A stretch of 22,032 nucleotides of DNA from a virus. Taxonomy: Duplodnaviria > Heunggongvirae > Uroviricota > Caudoviricetes. Under the pieces are notes generated by a model. That model ran no database searches, was not told the DNA's origin, and saw nothing but the letters and a program-made list of their open reading frames with translations. Position numbers and translations under genes: made by a program. The DNA lies in the IMG/VR virus record IMGVR_UViG_2740892235_000005, one strand, 5' to 3'. Of this stretch, positions 1 to 20,494 are shown one piece after another (within the stretch, counting starts at the first letter, position 1; every line of letters starts with the position of its first letter).

Positions 1-89
1 ACCGTCAGGTCGATTTCCCAGAGCACCACCCGCGGTGACTGCTCTGACTTAACCGACTCGTTCAGGCTTGCTTCGTGAATATCCTGCAT
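1..89 (-). CDS. L: minor tail protein L (lambda gpL-like), 5' fragment; gene continues past window start
   Basis: Minus-strand translation from ATG at 89..87 gives MQDIHEASLNESVKSEQSPRVVLWEIDLT, matching the recalled lambda gpL N-terminus (MQDIRQETLNE...VVLWEIDLT). An alternative upstream ATG lies at 101..99. Confidence 0.6.
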   Translation of the reverse strand, partial: MQDIHEASLNESVKSEQSPRVVLWEIDLT

Positions 90-101
90 ATATCCGCCCA
101 T

Positions 102-125
102 AAAAAAGGGGCGCAACCGCGCCCC
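102..125 (-). terminator. GC hairpin plus U-tract directly upstream of gpL start (terminator-like)
   Basis: On the minus strand GGGGCGC-GGTT-GCGCCCC is followed by TTTTTT, then the gpL ATG. Confidence 0.5.
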
Positions 126-299
126 GAACAATAAAAGTCCAATTTAAAATAAAACCAATAAAGGTAATAACAGAAAGTTAAATCAACACATGCCAGATGG
201 CAATTGCTGATCGCAGTGACCAATGAAAACTGTGTTTTCATTGATACAGGCCGCCAGTAAGGGCTGACGGCCCGTATTTATTATACTTATCAGCAATAA

Positions 300-1463
300 T
301 CAGAACTGATAAGTCATACCCACAGCAACGATATTATCTGTCGCAACACCGGCTTTCCGGGTAAATTCACTTTCCTCAATCAGGTTAATTTTATAATCAA
401 CATGGGTGGACATATTCTTGTTAAAGTAATAAGTCGCACCGACATCAATATATTTAACCAGATCCTGATCGCCATGGTTCACGCCACCAACCATAACATC
501 CTGTCCTCGGGACTGAAGGTAGGCCAGAGACGGACGCAGACCAAAATCAAACTGATACTGAACAACGGCTTCGATATTCTGAGCTTTATCCGCAACACCT
601 TGATCACCAAAGGTCGTCATATTCTGGGTTTCTGAATACACTGCTGCCAGATACAGGTTATTGGCATCATATTTAAGACCAGTTCCCCAGAATTCAGCAT
701 GTTTACCTTTTGCAACGCTGCCGGAATCAACGACCACTTCTTTTTCAGTCACATCCCCAGTTAAAGGATCTTTGATTTCAATAGTTTTGCTACCATTCAG
801 TCCCTGAACCTGCTTATTGGTACGATCTGACTTGGTATACGCAGCCACAAAACCAAAACCATCAAACTCATAGCTGGCTGAGAAACCATACCCATCACCA
901 TTGGCCTTCTGGAGGTCATCGCGCTCATTTTTGCCCTGATACTGCGCCGCAAAATTCAGACCATCAACCAGCCCAAAGAAATCTGTATTACGGTAAGTCA
1001 GAACTCCGGAAGTTCGAGCAGTCATAAAGTTATCGGTCTGAGTCCAGCCATCACCACCAAACTCTGGCAGTACGTCAGTATATGATCCGACATCGTAAGC
1101 AATACCGTAGTTACGTCCGTAATCAATGCTACCAACATCAGCAAATCTCAGACCTGCAAATGCCAGACGGGTTTTATTTCCCGCGGAACCTTCAGATTCC
1201 GTTTTGTTACCAGAGAACTGGTATTCCCACTGACCAAATCCGGTCAGTTGATCATTAATCTGCGTTTCGCCTTTAAAGCCGAGACGAGCATAAGTCTGAT
1301 CTCCGTCATTACCTTTATCATCCGAGAAGTAATGCAGAGCGGTTGCACGCCCGTAAAGATCCAGTTTATTACCATCTTTATTATAAACTTCTGCTGCCTG
1401 CGCCCCCGCAGCAAACATCACTGCAACTGCTACAGCAGAAAGTGCCACTGTCATTTTTTTCAT
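300..1463 (-). CDS. outer-membrane general porin, OmpC/NmpC/Lc family (prophage-borne)
   Basis: 387-aa ORF with signal peptide [23 protein letters not shown], mature N-terminus [15 protein letters not shown], and the porin C-terminal YQF; close to recalled E. coli OmpC/NmpC. Flanks are AT-rich. Confidence 0.9.
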
Positions 1464-1661
1464 GATTTAATCCTTATTTAAACTGAACTATTCATGCATT
1501 CAGATGTCATGAACAAAAATTAAAATATTTTAATACAAATTCTTAGTTCAATTTATATTACGTAACAAAATGTAAATGCAAGATCGATTTCGCACTTTCT
1601 GACAAGACAGATTAAAAATAATTAACAACTAAACACTAAAGAATGATTTATAGGATAATTC
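1464..1661 (-). promoter_or_regulatory. AT-rich upstream region of the porin gene; probable own promoter
   Basis: About 200 bp of AT-rich sequence between gpM stop and porin start, unlike the GC-rich flanking tail genes; sigma70-like hexamers (TTGCAT ... TAATAT) on the minus strand. No experimental support. Confidence 0.35.
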
Positions 1662-2003
1662 TCATCTAACTACCTGCTCTATCGTGCAACTGAAATCACT
1701 GTACCGGGCGTTATCCGTAATACTCCACTCCCGGCACACCACCCTGACCGTCCGGTTATGTTTCGGGGGCTTCCACAAAAAAGCCCGGTAACCGCCATGC
1801 CATGACAGAAACGCGGACAGTGCCTCCCGCTCAGCATCCGTTGTCACCCGAAAAACCACCTGAAAGGTCTTCAGTTGCGCATTCAGTCCTGCCGGACGAC
1901 GCTGCTGATAACCGTCGCCAAACTTCACTGTCACCACCGACGGTTTCTCCGTCACCTGCATCCCTTCCCGGGGACACCAGTGAAGGGTCTTAATCTCATC
2001 CAC
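1662..2003 (-). CDS. M: minor tail protein M (lambda gpM-like)
   Basis: 113-aa ORF; VKFGDGYQQRRPAGLNAQLKTFQV and FLWKPP resemble recalled lambda gpM. Sits directly downstream of the tape measure gene with an 8-nt overlap. Confidence 0.8.
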   Translation of the reverse strand: MDEIKTLHWCPREGMQVTEKPSVVTVKFGDGYQQRRPAGLNAQLKTFQVVFRVTTDAEREALSAFLSWHGGYRAFLWKPPKHNRTVRVVCREWSITDNARYSDFSCTIEQVVR

Positions 2004-5000
2004 TCAGCATTCCTCCGTCACGACGCATGGATAACATCACCGCCTGTACCCTCTGGTCTATCAGTTGCACAAGGGTGCCCGCCGCTTCCGGCCCTATCTG
2101 CCCGTTAGCGCCGTCATTCTGAATGGCGATGTGGTACACCGGGGAATACACCAGACCCGCACTGCCGTTCATGCGGCCCACCGCACGCACGCCGAGTGAA
2201 CCATCCGCTGCCCGGGTCAGGGGCATGATGGCTTCAGGTCCGGCCTCCCCCATCAGCCCTGCCCCTTTTGCAAAGGCAAAGTACGTGGGCGTGTCCACAA
2301 TACTGTTACTGTATGCACTCAGGTTTGCCGAGGTATAAACGCCGCCTTTTGCATTTGCCACCGCGCCACCCAGCCAGTTGCCTATACTGCCGAAAAATCC
2401 TCCTGCACCGGACATACTGTTTGCCGCCATCTTAATGCCGTTGACAATGGCCGCATTCATAAGAACTTTTGATATTTCCTGCAGGATTGATGCAGCCCAG
2501 CTGCGCCATTCCACTTTATTTCCGTTCAGCATCTCCGTGATGTTATTCACCATCCCTGAGATACCGTCTGTCGCAAGCTGTGCTGCCTGTGAAGCGTAAT
2601 CTGATGCGCTGTCCACCCAGTTACTTAGCCCTTCCTGCAGCCCTTTCTGCCAGTCAGCACGCTGCGCATCCGATTCGGCATAAAAAGCCTCCTGGTCTTT
2701 CAGTCGTTCACTCAGATACTGCGCATTCTGCGCCAGCGCCTGTCTGTAAAAATCCTCACTGATATCCCCTGTCTGATACTGAGACTGCAGGTCCGCATCC
2801 TTCTGGCGGTAGCCGTCACGAATCTGCTGCAGCTCCCGCATCCGTTCACGGACCCGCTCACCCTGCCCGTACCCCAGCAGCTCAGCGTCATTTGATGCCC
2901 TTTCGTCTGCATTATCATTTTTCAGAGCCTCCTCCCGGGCCCGTAACTGCTCCCGGATTTTCTTCTGGTCAATCAGGGCAGCATTGCGCAGCAGCTCCTG
3001 CTTCTGTATCTCCGTCAGGGTTTTCAGCTCGCCCTGCGAGGTCTGGTATTTCAGTTTTGCCAGTTCTGTATTCTTCCCGGCCAGTGCCAGTTGTTCCTTC
3101 TGCTGCTTCAGCAGACGGGAAAAACTGTCTTCCGCTTTTTCCGCCCCTGATTTTCCGGCCCGGGATTTGGGTTTATTCGCCTCATTATTGCGCCAGGCTT
3201 CCATCGAATTACGGATGTAACGCTGCCTCGCCTCCTGATACGTATCCCCCACCAGACCAAGGTCATCCGCCGCATACCCCAGCCGGGCACGCTCTTTTTC
3301 TTCCCCTTTCAGCCGGGACAGGGCAAGTTGACGCTCTGTGTTATTCAGGGCGCCCTGCTGTTTATCATCCAGAGTGGCCTGTGGCAGTCGCAGCGGTACA
3401 CTCGCCAGTCCCTGACGCTGTTGCAGCAGTTCATTACCCAGCCCCAGCAGGCGGTTGAATTCCGTATGCTGACCGTTCATGATCAGCAGTGACTGATACG
3501 CTTTATTCTGCTCTGCCGCCTGCTGACGAATTAACACAACACGGCGCTCTTCCAGTCCGGCAAGCACATCCTGAATGGACTGCGCTTTTTCCTGCATCTG
3601 TGCCAGACGGGACTGCTCAACAGCAAACTGCTCTGTTGCCTGAGCAAGCTCTTCCGTTACAGTTTTCACCGATGTCAGATGGTTTATCATGAAGCCGTTA
3701 CCGGTCGTCCAGCCCGGATTAGCCAGCACATACTGATACCCGGCGATTTTTTCCTGCAGGGATTTCACCCGGCTGGCCTGCTCATCAATCAGCCGGTTCT
3801 GCTCTGTCAGCGCCTCCCGTGTTCGCCCTTCATTATCTGAGGCTTCAGGCAGAGACATTGATGGCGTTTTATGCGCGATTTCATCAATCGTCAGTGCATA
3901 CTGGTGCGCAGACTCCCTGGCCTGTTCCTGATTCTGGTACAGCGTGTACCATGCGGCAGCTCCCAGCATCACCAGTCCGGGTACGCCTCCAATCAGTCCC
4001 AGCGCACCGCTCATCAGACGTGAGCCCACCGCCGTTGTACTGTTCAGCGCATTCTGGGCGGCGGTTCTGGCAGCAATATTTCTGTTCAGGCGTTCCTGTG
4101 TGACCGCCAGACGGGCCTCTGCGGCAATCTGCATCTCAGTCCCGCGGGCTGCCGCCACAGCCTGCTGAGCCCGGTACACGGCTGCCCTTGCCCGCGCAGT
4201 GGCAATCTGCGTTCCCCTTAACTGGGCCTCAGCCAGTGCCACTTCATTACGTGCAGCGGTCACAAGTCCTGCCGTGGCAGACATCGCTCCGGAAGCCAGA
4301 TTACCAAAGTACCGGGCCACCCCGACAGCAACCAGCACACCCGCAGCTGTTGCCACGGTATCAATATTTCCGGCCACACCGTTCAGCGCGCCGGAGAGCG
4401 TTTTCGTCGCTCCGCTGGCCTCATTCGCGCCGCCCACCCAGGCCATAAAGGCGTTTTCCACCTTCGTGATACTACCGGAAACCGTTTCCGGCATGGCTGC
4501 ATATTCATCACGCAATATCCCCAGCTGGCTGATTAACGCGGGAACGACTTTATCCGCCGTCAGTTGACCATCGTCCGCCATCGCCTTCAGATCCTTACGG
4601 GCCACGCCCATGCCTGCAGCCAGTGCGCGAATGATCCGGTCCCCACTTTCATTGACCGAATTAAATTCCTCGCCGCGCAACACCCCCTGTGCCAGCGCCT
4701 GGCTGAACTGGGTGATCACCGAACCCGCCTCTGCCGCACTGGCACCGGAAATTTTCAGCCCTGTCGAAATGGCCTCCGTCACCTTCAGCACATCATCAGC
4801 ACTGTAACCATATTCACGCATTGAGGCGGCAGAGCGGGCAAACAGGGCCGCATTATCCGAAAATGCGGTGCCTGTCCGCTGGCTGATATCCATCAGCACT
4901 TTCTGTGATGACGCAAATTCATCCGATGACTGCGACGCCTGTTTCAGACGGGCATTCACGGAACCCCATTCATCCGCCAGCGAAATCAGGTGTCCGGTGG

Positions 5001-5238
5001 CAAAGACACCGGCAAACGCACCGGTCATTCCGACAGCTGAAGCGCGGATTTCCGTCAACTGGCTGTTCAGCTCAGCCAGAGCCCGGCGCTGCTCCCTGGC
5101 TGCCGCAGCAGCCTGACGTCCGCCATTCTGCAGGGTCCGGTAATATTCACTGCCCATACGGGACGCCCGCTGGATCTCCGACTGGAATGACTGTGAATTT
5201 GCCGAAATTTTTATAATCAGTTCACGTAACGTCGCCAT
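1996..5238 (-). CDS. H: tail tape measure protein (gpH-like)
   Basis: 1080-aa Ala/Gln-rich ORF, coiled-coil-like, directly downstream of the G/T chaperone pair. RBS GGAGAAAGG precedes the ATG. Confidence 0.9.
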   Translation of the reverse strand: MATLRELIIKISANSQSFQSEIQRASRMGSEYYRTLQNGGRQAAAAAREQRRALAELNSQLTEIRASAVGMTGAFAGVFATGHLISLADEWGSVNARLKQASQSSDEFASSQKVLMDISQRTGTAFSDNAALFARSAASMREYGYSADDVLKVTEAISTGLKISGASAAEAGSVITQFSQALAQGVLRGEEFNSVNESGDRIIRALAAGMGVARKDLKAMADDGQLTADKVVPALISQLGILRDEYAAMPETVSGSITKVENAFMAWVGGANEASGATKTLSGALNGVAGNIDTVATAAGVLVAVGVARYFGNLASGAMSATAGLVTAARNEVALAEAQLRGTQIATARARAAVYRAQQAVAAARGTEMQIAAEARLAVTQERLNRNIAARTAAQNALNSTTAVGSRLMSGALGLIGGVPGLVMLGAAAWYTLYQNQEQARESAHQYALTIDEIAHKTPSMSLPEASDNEGRTREALTEQNRLIDEQASRVKSLQEKIAGYQYVLANPGWTTGNGFMINHLTSVKTVTEELAQATEQFAVEQSRLAQMQEKAQSIQDVLAGLEERRVVLIRQQAAEQNKAYQSLLIMNGQHTEFNRLLGLGNELLQQRQGLASVPLRLPQATLDDKQQGALNNTERQLALSRLKGEEKERARLGYAADDLGLVGDTYQEARQRYIRNSMEAWRNNEANKPKSRAGKSGAEKAEDSFSRLLKQQKEQLALAGKNTELAKLKYQTSQGELKTLTEIQKQELLRNAALIDQKKIREQLRAREEALKNDNADERASNDAELLGYGQGERVRERMRELQQIRDGYRQKDADLQSQYQTGDISEDFYRQALAQNAQYLSERLKDQEAFYAESDAQRADWQKGLQEGLSNWVDSASDYASQAAQLATDGISGMVNNITEMLNGNKVEWRSWAASILQEISKVLMNAAIVNGIKMAANSMSGAGGFFGSIGNWLGGAVANAKGGVYTSANLSAYSNSIVDTPTYFAFAKGAGLMGEAGPEAIMPLTRAADGSLGVRAVGRMNGSAGLVYSPVYHIAIQNDGANGQIGPEAAGTLVQLIDQRVQAVMLSMRRDGGMLSG

Positions 5239-7550: not shown

Positions 7551-7897
7551 TTTTCCCCTCCCAGCCGACAGAGAATTTCCAGACGCCCGCCGGTCGCATC
7601 CGGCACGGGCAGCCCGACAACGTTCAGGATCCGGTCACGCCATGGACCACTCAGCACATGAAGTCGTGACGCTGCCGTGATTTCCCGACCGGACTGACCG
7701 CGCACCCAGATGCGGATTTCCGCCTGCGCCATTTCCGCACCGGACTGCATCCGCTCCCGGCTGCTCCTGCCACGGATATCCGCATGAATTTTCCCGCATG
7801 ACACCCATTCTTCCGTCATTTCTCCGGCAGCATTACGGGTTAACACCGGGTTCAGAACACTTATCATCTGTGTCAGACGACCTGCATATATTGCCAT
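7547..7897 (-). CDS. head-tail adaptor / head closure protein
   Basis: 116-aa ORF; C-terminal ...RLEILCRLGGEK and overall pattern resemble head-closure (Phage_H_T_join-like) proteins. Confidence 0.6.
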   Translation of the reverse strand: MAIYAGRLTQMISVLNPVLTRNAAGEMTEEWVSCGKIHADIRGRSSRERMQSGAEMAQAEIRIWVRGQSGREITAASRLHVLSGPWRDRILNVVGLPVPDATGGRLEILCRLGGEK

Positions 7898-16751: not shown

Positions 16752-16932
16752 GTCCGGTTTCTTCCACCATCGCACCGGACCAGCGACCATGAGGGGACAA
16801 CGCCGCGCTCCGTTAACGCGGTAAACCCCGGTGTGTATCGTTTTTGATTATCCCCGCACACTCGCGCAGAGGAGTCTCCCGGTCGGGCTGCGGTCTCTGT
16901 TAATGCAGGAATACGGCGACGATACGGCGCAT
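16752..16932. repeat. 181-bp conserved noncoding element, copy A (module-junction sequence)
   Basis: About 97% identical to 19307..19487; contains inverted repeats GTCCGGT...ACCGGAC and CCGCG-ctccgttaa-CGCGG. Confidence 0.8.
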
Positions 16933-17665: not shown

Positions 17666-18139
17666 TTAATTCAGGCACTGAGTGCGGATATATTCCTGAA
17701 GCGTTCTCAATGCGGCCTGATCGCTGATGATTCCGTCTCTGATACCGAGAACGTTTCGTCCAGCAACTGGAGAGAGTTCGACGGCGGCATCATTGCCCAC
17801 GCCGGAGGTGGTGGGGGCTTCACGCACGGAGCCTGGACAGGTGGCGTTGATCCGCAGGCGCTTACGACCAGCGGCAACATCAGCACGCAGAGTTTCATTT
17901 TCAGCTCTCGCATCGGCTAATTCCCTCGAGTATTTTGCATCGAGCGCAGCAACATCGCGCTGGCGCACCTGCATATCAGTAATGGTTGCGTTTGCCTGCT
18001 CCAGCTCTCTGGCTTTTTTATCGCGCTGCGCTTTGTAGGTGATGGCGTTATCGCGGTAATGATTCAGCCCCAGACTAAGCGCACCACAGACCACCAGCAG
18101 AATAACGGTAAACGCGGAAAGCATTCGGTTTATGCTCAC
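17666..18139 (-). CDS. Rz: i-spanin Rz (copy A)
   Basis: 157-aa ORF with N-terminal TM segment and [45 protein letters not shown], very close to recalled lambda Rz. Confidence 0.9.
17707..17913 (-). CDS. Rz1: o-spanin Rz1 (copy A), embedded in the +1 frame of Rz
   Basis: Lipobox LPLVVSAC then proline-rich [10 protein letters not shown], as in lambda Rz1; exact start codon uncertain. Confidence 0.8.
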
Positions 18140-18531: not shown

Positions 18532-18620
18532 ACTTTTATTCACTTAGGTTTTGCCAGTTCGCAGGATTTCGTGTTATCCGTCCGCGTTGGCCAACGTCAT
18601 TTTTCAGCAAAATATTCTGC

Positions 18621-18784
18621 TTATCTGTCGATACCCCAGCACGCCAGCGCGCTCTCCTGGTCACGACGGGATACCTGACCATAGCAATTATTTGAGCGGA
18701 TACGGCAGTCTCTGCCACCGTCCTTAATCCACCAGCGAATCGCTTCACACGCTCCCCTGCGATCGCCTGCATTAATTCGTTTAT
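18621..18784 (-). CDS. SAR endolysin copy A, 3' fragment truncated by the scaffold gap
   Basis: In-frame translation ends ...[32 protein letters not shown], paralogous to the C-terminus of the complete lysozyme at 19961..20494 with many synonymous differences. Confidence 0.75.
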
Positions 18785-18794
18785 AAAACGTCGA
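18785..18794. other. assembly gap (10 N)
   Basis: Run of N; the 63 bp before it are identical to 20081..20143. Confidence 1.
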
Positions 18795-19084
18795 NNNNNN
18801 NNNNACACGAGCAGACCGGTTTCCTGCTCAAATTTCAGTCGGTCACGTTCTGACTGGTACCATGCTTTACGCGCATGAGGATCCATTTCCTCGTTATCTA
18901 CAGGCAGAGGAGCTTTCATCAGCTCGGCAAGGATATCTGTCAGTCGGTACAGTTTGAGATTGCTCTCATGGCCACCGGCTGGGCTTATGTTTTTTACCCG
19001 AGCCGCGACAGTCTGTCGATGAGCACCGGATAATGCAGCCAGTTGGGAAATATTCAGATGCAGATTTTTTAATTCACGATCCAT
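18795..19084 (-). CDS. Nu1-like terminase small subunit / winged-HTH DNA-binding protein, N-terminal fragment truncated by gap
   Basis: MDRELKNLHLNISQLAALSGAHRQTVAARVKN... has an N-terminal HTH like lambda gpNu1 and sits about 145 bp downstream of a cos-like GC block; the ORF-track product 18536..19084 is a chimera across the gap. Confidence 0.4.
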
Positions 19085-19496: not shown

Positions 19497-19982
19497 TTAG
19501 TTCAGGCACTGAGTGCGGATATATTCCTGCGCCCCTTCCAGCTGCTTCTGCATTGTCATCAACCGTTCTCTGAGGATGAAATAATCCCGTTCAGCGGTGT
19601 CTGCCAGTCGGGGGCCGGTTGCATTATCCACGCCGGAGGTGCCGGTGGCTTCACGCACGGTACCGTGGCAGGTGGCGTTGATCCGCAGGCGCTTACGACC
19701 AGCGGCAACGTCAGCGCGAAGAGTTTCATTTTCAGCTCTCGCATCGGCTAATTCCCTCGAGTATTTTGCATCGAGCGCAGCAACATCACGCTGGCGCACC
19801 TGCATGTCAGTAATGGTGGCATTCGCCTGTTCCAGCTCTCTGGCTTTTTTATCGCGCTGCGCTTTGTAGGTGATGGCGTTATCGCGGTAATGATTAACAG
19901 CCCATAACAGACAGACGATGATGCAGATAACCAGAGCGTAAATAATCGCGGTTACTCTTCTCACTGATCTATCCCCCAACAA
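19497..19982 (-). CDS. Rz: i-spanin Rz (copy B)
   Basis: 161-aa [38 protein letters not shown]... near-identical to lambda Rz over the N-terminal half; C-terminal third differs from copy A. Confidence 0.9.
19559..19744 (-). CDS. Rz1: o-spanin Rz1 (copy B), embedded in the +1 frame of Rz
   Basis: Lipobox LPLVVSAC then [32 protein letters not shown], very close to lambda Rz1. Confidence 0.85.
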
Positions 19983-20494
19983 GCTAATGCGCTTTCCTGG
20001 TCACGACGAATAACCTGTCCGTAGCAGTTATTTGAACGTGTGCGGCAATCACGCCCACCGTCCTTAATCCACCAGCGAATCGCTTCACACGCTCCCCTGC
20101 GATCGCCTGCATTAATTCGTTTATAAAACGTCGACGGGAAACACTTACCGGGGCCAATGTTGTAAGGACAGAATGACGCAATACCCGCTTTCTGGGGTTC
20201 AGTCAGTGGCACTTTGATGTTTTTCTCCACCCATGCCAGCGCCTTATCCCGTTCGATAGCGTTAACCCGGTCGCATTTTTCCTTCGACAGCTTCATGCCA
20301 GGAATAACAGGCTTACCATCCACCCGGGTGGCTCCACGGCAGATGGTCCAGATACCCGCACCATCACGGTATGCCGTGGTGTGGTTACCTTCTTTTTCGT
20401 CAAGAAACTGGTCGAGGATTTCAGGCGCAGAAGCCCCTGCGGCAATCAGCGCCAGAACGGCAGCTGACAGGCCGTATTTGATTTTTGCGTTCAT
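19961..20494 (-). CDS. R: SAR endolysin (GH24 phage lysozyme with N-terminal signal-arrest-release domain), copy B
   Basis: 177-aa ORF; Gly/Ala-rich weakly hydrophobic N-terminus ([18 protein letters not shown]) and E-x8-D-x5-T catalytic spacing ([16 protein letters not shown]), as in phage 21 R. Confidence 0.85.

Follow-up and report, generated by a model that had tools for sequence, protein, structure and literature searches.

A porin gene with a 3' untranslated region complementary to the ompC leader, located between tail genes M and L of lambdoid prophages of Escherichia coli

Here we describe a 1,572-bp cassette found in a 22,032-nucleotide stretch of viral DNA (Caudoviricetes; IMG/VR record IMGVR_UViG_2740892235_000005), the whole of which is called the window below. 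The cassette (window 90-1661, minus strand) is placed exactly at the junction of the minor tail genes gpM and gpL of a lambdoid prophage, and is made up of an AT-rich upstream region, a complete gene for an OmpC-family porin, a 3' untranslated region (3'UTR) with an open segment complementary to the leader of host ompC, and an intrinsic terminator. In our judgement it is probably a self-contained lysogenic-conversion moron, in which a control region, a porin, a 3'UTR directed against ompC and ompF, and a terminator together bring about porin replacement. Juhala and colleagues reportedly used the term moron in 2000 for an extra gene unit in a phage genome. The cassette is inserted between genes that are adjacent in a related phage, deviates in base composition and has its own downstream terminator.

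A porin gene inside the tail operon

Over the window's first 15 kb, every gene is on the minus strand. The tape-measure gene (1996..5238) lies directly upstream and is followed by gpM (minor tail protein M, 1662..2003; Pfam Phage_min_tail, E=3e-33), a 387-aa porin open reading frame (ORF; 300..1463) and the 5' end of gpL (minor tail protein L, 1..89), which begins with an ATG at 89..87 and continues beyond the window. The gpL start is the same sequence as that of the 'phage minor tail protein L' annotated in the near-identical genome NZ_CP031898. In phage BP-4795, M and L of which are 85% identical to those of the window, the stop codon of gpM and the ATG of gpL overlap (TGATG), and the window carries 1,572 bp more at the same point. 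This empty-site comparison places the porin inside the tail operon and not beside a prophage end. The O113:H21 strain FWSEC0010 is identical to the first 18.8 kb of the window save for one synonymous base, the two diverging after position 18795. Its prophage is integrated at ompW, and downstream of the porin it is annotated with L, a K-like peptidase, I, J, Lom and a tail fibre; a check for Stx conversion found no stx gene annotated in the prophage of the near-identical genome. The first-pass annotation had placed a co-oriented porin between gpM and gpL in the tail operon, and had named a chromosomal porin adjoining a prophage end as the finding that would overturn this. The presence of L, K, I and J after the porin in complete genomes bears out the former and contradicts the latter.

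Base composition also set the cassette apart. Its G+C content (GC) was 41.5%, falling to 23.7% in the 198-bp region upstream of the porin, as compared to 57% in the tail and head genes, and GC at third codon positions (GC3) was 0.38 in the porin and 0.61 in the tape-measure gene. These values confirmed the foreign composition of what had been described as an AT-rich cassette with its own upstream region. Since the TGATG coupling of M and L is replaced, expression of L, K, I and J relies on read-through of the terminator and on a new ribosome-binding site; right after the terminator (window 90-101), and at the equivalent positions in all variants, there is a new conserved L leader, UAUGGGYGGAU...AUG.

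When megablast was used with a presence threshold of at least 80% coverage of the cassette, 91-102 of 5,426 complete E. coli genomes (about 2%) were found to carry it, among them many strains that produce Shiga toxin (STEC) from cattle, food and patients, and some isolates from the mouse gut. The cassette is thus common in E. coli and already annotated, the porin being named 'porin OmpC' by the Prokaryotic Genome Annotation Pipeline (PGAP). All five E. coli genomes sampled from the hits, at 100, 95, 88, 80 and about 80% (partial) nucleotide identity, had the order M-porin-L, and one of these prophages has a different, lambda-type tail module. A second set of 30 IMG/VR contigs was collected by exact match to 24 nt at the start of the porin gene. 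Wherever these contigs extended far enough, the porin had M upstream at a distance of about 200 nt and L downstream at about 210 nt, L being detected by tblastn in 29 of the 30 loci. Their gpM proteins were 48-100% identical to that of the window, so that the flanking tail modules are divergent. The same order was seen in a Citrobacter farmeri contig and next to a further lambda-type tail. None of the sequenced phages in INPHARED had the cassette. An exact scan of one genome per species with the first 24 nt of the gene gave no match and is uninformative, E. coli being a single genome there. No paper returned by a literature search described a porin at the gpM/gpL junction; coverage of the search was incomplete, so absence is not proven.

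The porin gene was covered end to end by Pfam Porin_1 (E=5e-143, profile positions 1-337 of 337), and the nearest solved structures were those of OmpC, PhoE and OmpF (E=1e-131 to 1e-118), thereby confirming a full gene of the OmpC family, as claimed at first pass. It encodes a signal peptide (1463..1395, cleavage AQA/AEV) and ends in the C-terminal motif YQF. An AlphaFold model (mean predicted local distance difference test score 72.6) had 16 strands, with template modelling scores of 0.79-0.81 to OmpC and OmpK36. Residues of the constriction zone are kept, including the L3 motif PEFGGD; R39, R60, R99, D130, E134 and R150 of the porin aligned with K16, R42, R82, D113, E117 and R132 of OmpF. 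The ratio of nonsynonymous to synonymous divergence (dN/dS) among variants was about 0.04 in the barrel and about 0 in L3, as compared to 0.13-0.26 in the outer loops and 0.13-0.48 in L5, while synonymous divergence (dS) between porin variants reached about 1 or more. Purifying selection acts strongly on the barrel and on L3. Judged from sequence and model, the protein is most likely a functional general-diffusion porin.

The porin is 64% identical to OmpC of E. coli K-12 and lacks the long L4 segment of OmpC. Porins from the M-L position formed a clade of their own in a distance tree, apart from Lc/NmpC/OmpD and from OmpC. In NCBIfam the broad 'porin OmpC' subfamily model was passed narrowly (504.9 bits against a cut-off of 484), and the equivalog cut-offs for PhoE (484.9 against 599) and OmpF (475.7 against 583) were not reached. 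Orthology with OmpC was ruled out by the location at gpM/gpL, which is not the micF-ompC locus, and by the separate clade. A few members of the M-L porin clade occur outside prophages, in contexts resembling insertion sequences (IS) or plasmids. Two of these, P0020 and P0025, had been candidates for prophage M-L porins and were set aside because of their IS-, plasmid- or island-type contexts. A third candidate, P0027 (70% identical), is in fact plasmid-borne and adjoins an alkaline phosphatase gene.

Variation in the porin was concentrated in loop L5 (residues 214-254; 702..824, minus strand), as delimited by the AlphaFold model and the alignment. As compared to OmpC and OmpF, L5 has an insertion of 26-27 residues at about 221-247 (about 803..726), modelled as a beta-hairpin (strands 225-231 and 238-244) that lies between strands 9 and 10 of the barrel, and it is 18 residues longer than L5 of Lc. 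An extra insert relative to OmpC and NmpC, probably in a surface loop, had been noted in the first-pass annotation. The alignment showed that the insert is real and it mapped to L5 of the 16-strand barrel, the hypervariable part of the clade; the proposed limits were slightly off, the quoted 11-letter tail aligning with ordinary OmpC. Among 23 distinct proteins, mean column entropy was 1.11 bits in L5, with 30 of 46 columns gapped, as compared to 0.21 bits in the barrel and 0.11 bits in L3, neither of which had any gapped column. L5 alleles in the same proteins ranged from no insert up to 30 residues, and L6 is the second indel site of the clade. Long-L5 alleles go with a short L6, and three short-L5 alleles with a long L6. 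The L5 of two porins (loci L005 and L023) contains a tandem six-residue duplication, NGTQTV NGTQTV, where P0012 has one NGTQTV, suggesting slippage or duplication as one source of length variation. The hypervariability of L5 is in keeping with pressure exerted by agents recognising the surface of the porin. Positive selection was not demonstrated, dN/dS being below 1 throughout in the between-variant comparison.

The upstream control region and the 3' untranslated region

The AT-rich region upstream of the porin (1464..1661, minus strand) has several blocks conserved across five variants, namely TTTACATT, ATTGAA, AATATTTT, GTTNATGACA, TGAANAGTTC and AAGGA, the last being the Shine-Dalgarno (SD) sequence at 1475..1471. 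An OmpR-box-like 17-mer, CTTGCATTTACATTTTG (1566..1582, minus strand), is an exact 17-nt match to K-12 DNA about 100 nt upstream of the ompC start site (score 34 against a shuffle maximum of 32), a position which we take to be the OmpR C1 site of ompC. The 11-mer core, TTTACATTTTG, was found once in the window against an expectation of 0, and TTTACATT, lying in the OmpR-like box, is invariant across the five variants. The conserved blocks and the 17-nt match suggest an activator-dependent promoter, presumably under OmpR control, for which the hexamers ATGACA (1510..1505) and TTCAGT (1487..1482) are tentative guesses at -35 and -10. A conserved block upstream of the box, GTCTTGnCAnAAAGTG (window 1580-1612, minus strand), resembles the distal part of the ompC-micF intergenic region near the micF promoter, and the upstream region of the L004 variant shares 25 of 29 bases with that distal region. 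Possibly, then, the cassette was captured from a locus of the ompC-micF type. Neither the OmpR-like box nor the structured 3'UTR had been noted in the first-pass annotation.

Downstream of the porin, the 3'UTR (299..102) consists of three stable hairpins (181..277, minus strand; about 277..244, 243..221 and 212..181), an open U-rich segment and the terminator. The 210-nt region from the porin stop to the L start had a minimum free energy of -82.3 kcal/mol (z=-7.6 against shuffles). The terminator (102..125, minus strand) has the stem GGGGCGC/GCGCCCC (125..108) with seven G-C pairs followed by a run of six U (107..102); it folds with -19.2 kcal/mol, ends 12 nt before the gpL ATG, and its stem is unchanged in all variants. 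The 3'UTR was 86% conserved across variants in which synonymous sites of the coding regions are saturated, and ten base pairs were preserved by changes on both sides across six variants.

The single-stranded part of the 3'UTR, GAUUUAACUUUCUGUUAUUACCUUUAUUGGUUUUAUUU (147..184, minus strand), which we call the seed and which contains the segments CUGUUAU and CCUUUAUU, is antisense to positions -37..-5 of the ompC leader, including its SD sequence. The predicted duplex with the ompC 5' region had an energy of -28.5 kcal/mol (z=-4.9), better than with any of 249 control 5' regions. With the ompF 5' region, at the ribosome-binding site, the value was -20.3 kcal/mol, a score equalled by 4 of the 249 controls, and with the cassette's own leader it was -12.5 kcal/mol, at the background level of these controls. 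In all E. coli variants the complementarity of a 65-nt segment to ompC exceeded that of dinucleotide shuffles (z -2.5 to -3.9). The ompC leader itself was at least 99% identical in 5,359 of the 5,426 genomes. An internal promoter for the seed (TTGCCA-17-TAACTT) was considered and rejected, as it is not conserved in L016-type variants, and a weak Rfam match to isrL (E=0.098) was not reproduced by a narrower scan.

A covariance model built only from the M-L elements also found the 3'UTRs of porins in other clades, and clade members outside phages were matched with 88.5 bits and E=0.0018. The out-of-prophage porins P0020 and P0025 have the same 3' seed and terminator (L050:5215-5294 and 7708-7747, L051:5215-5297, L052:5022-5104). 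In L050 an IS66 element is inserted within the 3' element and separates the seed from the terminator.

A similar RNA is associated with the phage porins NmpC and Lc. IpeX is listed as an ompC-targeting small RNA (PMC5745476, PMC3333887). Castillo-Keller and colleagues (2006) reportedly described ipeX as an RNA of the nmpC/lc 3'UTR that lowers OmpC and OmpF. The open segments of IpeX and of the cassette share the blocks AAC(C/U)UUCUGUUAU and UACC(C)UUUAUU, both of which are common to the IpeX seed AACCUUCUGUUAUAUAUUACCCUUUAUU and the window's AACUUUCUGUUAUUACCUUUAUU, with pairwise scores of the window seed against IpeX near the shuffle maximum. The IpeX seed was predicted to pair with the same stretch of ompC (-26.7, z=-4.7), weakly with ompF, and not with the lc leader. 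Homology between the cassette 3'UTR and IpeX is therefore no more than plausible.

Proposed role, competing explanations and neighbouring genes

If the cassette is a conversion moron as proposed above, it would be transcribed on its own in the lysogen, with transcription ending at the terminator. The phage porin would enter the outer membrane while the 3'UTR, acting in trans, would lower host OmpC and OmpF. Permeability would be kept and the cell surface changed, and a receptor would be removed for the phage's own kind as well as for other OmpC/OmpF-dependent phages and colicins, with superinfection exclusion as the probable result. During lytic growth, Q-modified polymerase would pass the terminator, and L, K, I and J would be expressed.

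The tail-tip protein J was consistent with such a role. Its receptor-binding part (last 150 residues), taken from the near-identical prophage, was 77% identical to A8 gpJ and 49% to lambda J, and the J proteins of three other carriers were also nearer to A8 gpJ than to lambda J. A8 gpJ has been solved bound to OmpC (PDB 9wcb), and A8 gpJ particles require OmpC for DNA delivery (PMC11338833). As J resembles an OmpC-binding J, exchange of the porin would leave phages of the same kind without their receptor. The likeness makes receptor removal coherent, without evidence of a specific link; a pairing of the cassette with the OmpC type of J was considered and rejected, that type often occurring in phages that lack the cassette. 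Identity of the J receptor-binding domain was 97% with the domains of BP-4795, Stx phage 1717 and several Stx1a phages, and 89% with that of phage 21; all of these phages are probably OmpC-dependent too.

Several points weigh against the moron reading. A scan for consensus sigma-70 promoters on the porin strand found none, as is usual for promoters that need an activator, and, the cassette being co-oriented with the late operon, its transcription could be solely by read-through. The duplex predictions concern AU-rich sequence with intramolecular structure ignored. Rfam scans of the cassette and its 3' region detected no MicF, MicC or other family. When searched against IpeX, the covariance model hit the right place and strand, but weakly (19.6 bits, E=0.56 in the full search space), and its match to the Lc-type porin homologue of ev207 was weak as well (26.9 bits, E=0.022). 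The original IpeX paper of 2006 reportedly found no obvious complementarity to ompC and left the mode of action open; the ompC duplex described here is for that reason a prediction. Lastly, J lies beyond the window, its sequence coming from the near-identical genome (L001:13453-17148), and the same receptor-binding type is frequent in cassette-free phages (BP-4795, Stx phages, phage 21).

A more specific form of the proposal is a receptor swap with two arms, in which the phage porin would replace host porins while the 3'UTR would act as a direct antisense RNA on ompC, and also on ompF, sparing its own mRNA. A copy in the tail operon, co-transcribed with the late genes, would also silence the receptor during lytic growth. 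We put this form forward tentatively, judging it slightly more apt to be wrong than right. If true, it would provide a base-pairing mechanism for IpeX, and would mean that phages have placed a unit of porin and anti-porin RNA at least twice, in different genome slots.

The strongest competitor to the moron that silences host porins is a porin moron of purely physiological or antigenic benefit (gut life, bile, antibiotics, immune evasion), in which the 3'UTR would be an mRNA stabiliser and terminator and no phage would be excluded. The porin is indeed intact and strongly conserved, stable 3' hairpins are a common mRNA-stabilising device, the cassette has no specific association with one J type, and hypervariability of L5 would equally fit antibodies, colicins or phages recognising this porin. 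Such a porin leaves unexplained why the unstructured seed is more conserved than expected at a synonymous divergence of about 1, why its best target against the 249 controls is the ribosome-binding region of ompC with its own leader at background, and why the parallel with IpeX is so close. We regard this explanation as unlikely, though worth keeping in view.

Action mainly in lytic growth is a further alternative: under Q-modified transcription, OmpC would be silenced or replaced late, and fewer progeny would be lost on infected cells, debris and vesicles, as with Llp of T5. The orientation with the tail genes, opposite to the situation in Lc/NmpC (antisense to late transcription), speaks for it, as do the empty consensus promoter scan on the porin strand and a terminator placed where antiterminated polymerase alone could pass. 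Porins, however, are abundant and stable outer-membrane proteins, and it is not plausible that one of them would be replaced during the late phase; autonomous regulation is favoured by the OmpR-box homology and by the blocks conserved upstream. Moreover, other co-oriented morons, the lom gene of lambda and the lom homologue of Gifsy-2 among them, are expressed in lysogens. Lytic action as the main role is, in our view, highly improbable. A non-functional passenger or artefact, either a chromosomal porin by a prophage end or a recent capture now decaying, is hardly credible: the plain PGAP label and the existence of same-clade porins in IS- or plasmid-like contexts outside prophages would fit it, but tail genes flank the porin on both sides with L, K, I and J following in complete genomes, the position is identical across dozens of divergent prophages, and the ORFs are intact with a dN/dS of 0.04 at dS of about 1 or more.

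If the cassette is expressed, the porin set of carriers would differ from that implied by chromosomal ompC and ompF, which would bear on sensitivity to phages and colicins, including engineered OmpC-targeting delivery particles, on antibiotic permeability and on surface antigenicity. L5 marks the surface most probably recognised by outside agents. The automatic label 'porin OmpC' hides these features of the cassette.

Elsewhere in the window, two Rz-type lysis genes on the minus strand, 17666-18139 (Pfam Phage_lysis, E=3e-39) and 19497-19982 (E=3e-50), enclose a DUF1441 gene (18536-19084) and are followed by a lysozyme gene (19961-20494). As the window departs from its closest complete genome from 18795 on, the lysis region appears to be mosaic or duplicated. 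A small ORF (16277-16618, minus strand) between the HNH endonuclease and Rha regulator genes encodes a TonB C-terminal domain alone (TonB_C, E=6e-15). It lies in a low-GC stretch, about 15800-16800, and is probably a further moron; in strain LF82, the genes that prophage Perceval expresses in the lysogen include a 'TonB fragment' (PMC9928086).

Comparison with known systems

The closest relatives of the unit are the phage-borne porins Lc of PA-2 and NmpC of the cryptic prophage DLP12, which like the cassette porin belong to the OmpC/OmpF family and are about 71% identical to it over aligned residues (67% by tblastn). Many other lambdoid phages have porins of this group. Lysogeny by PA-2 reportedly yields Lc and lowers OmpC, the PA-2 receptor, as described by Blasband and colleagues in 1986 and by Castillo-Keller and colleagues in 2006. 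Downstream of Lc/NmpC there is an untranslated region of about 170-250 nt, in which three hairpins are combined with an open segment rich in U and with a terminator of the form GGGGCG..CGCCCC, a layout like that of the cassette, although the hairpin sequences of the IpeX region and of the cassette 3'UTR are unrelated. The genes lc and nmpC, together with the porin gene of ev207, lie between Q and the holin/lysis genes and are antisense to late transcription, in agreement with the earlier remark that the known prophage porins are placed elsewhere, whereas the cassette is co-oriented at gpM-gpL. The cassette porin clade is separate from the Lc/NmpC clade, and this separation at about 71% identity, along with the position outside Q-S, rules out membership in that group. 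Upstream, CRP sites are annotated in the lc record, and the cassette has an ompC-like OmpR box instead. For a phage porin of the Q-S type, expression in a lysogen is on record, NmpC of Perceval in LF82 being 10-fold above background (PMC9928086).

The slot itself is occupied by other cargo in Gifsy-2, where a lom homologue and sodC lie between the gpM and gpL homologues; the M-L junction is thus an established cargo slot, which the first-pass annotation had not mentioned. Like the cassette, the Gifsy-2 cargo shows the classic traits of a moron: its composition is foreign, it has a dedicated terminator and related phages lack it. In contrast, it comprises a superoxide dismutase and an Ail/Lom barrel but no porin, with sodC oriented antisense to the tail genes. 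We know of no anti-porin RNA in the M-L cargo of Gifsy-2.

In its design the cassette resembles ompC-micF and ompN-micC, in each of which a porin gene is linked to a small RNA that represses another porin through the ribosome-binding region. The cassette seed matched the MicF 5' region at 22 of 25 bases (5 of 1000 shuffles scored as well) and, with gaps, the first 33 nt of MicC, and the OmpR-box 17-mer is common to the ompC upstream DNA and the cassette upstream region. Unlike the antisense segment of the cassette, which is located in the 3'UTR on the porin strand of a prophage locus, micF and micC are separate, divergent genes upstream of the porin, and these pairs are chromosomal. The svsR RNA of the lambdoid prophage NC-SV likewise lowers a host outer-membrane phage receptor, LamB, with less phage adsorption (PMC12247714). 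It differs in lying at the 3' end of cI, in targeting the maltose regulon and in having no linked replacement porin. Thus, the slot and the class of cargo are each known already, though not in combination, and the unit is built like Lc/NmpC-IpeX. What distinguishes the cassette is that its porin is of a separate lineage with a very variable L5, and that its place and orientation in the genome are different.

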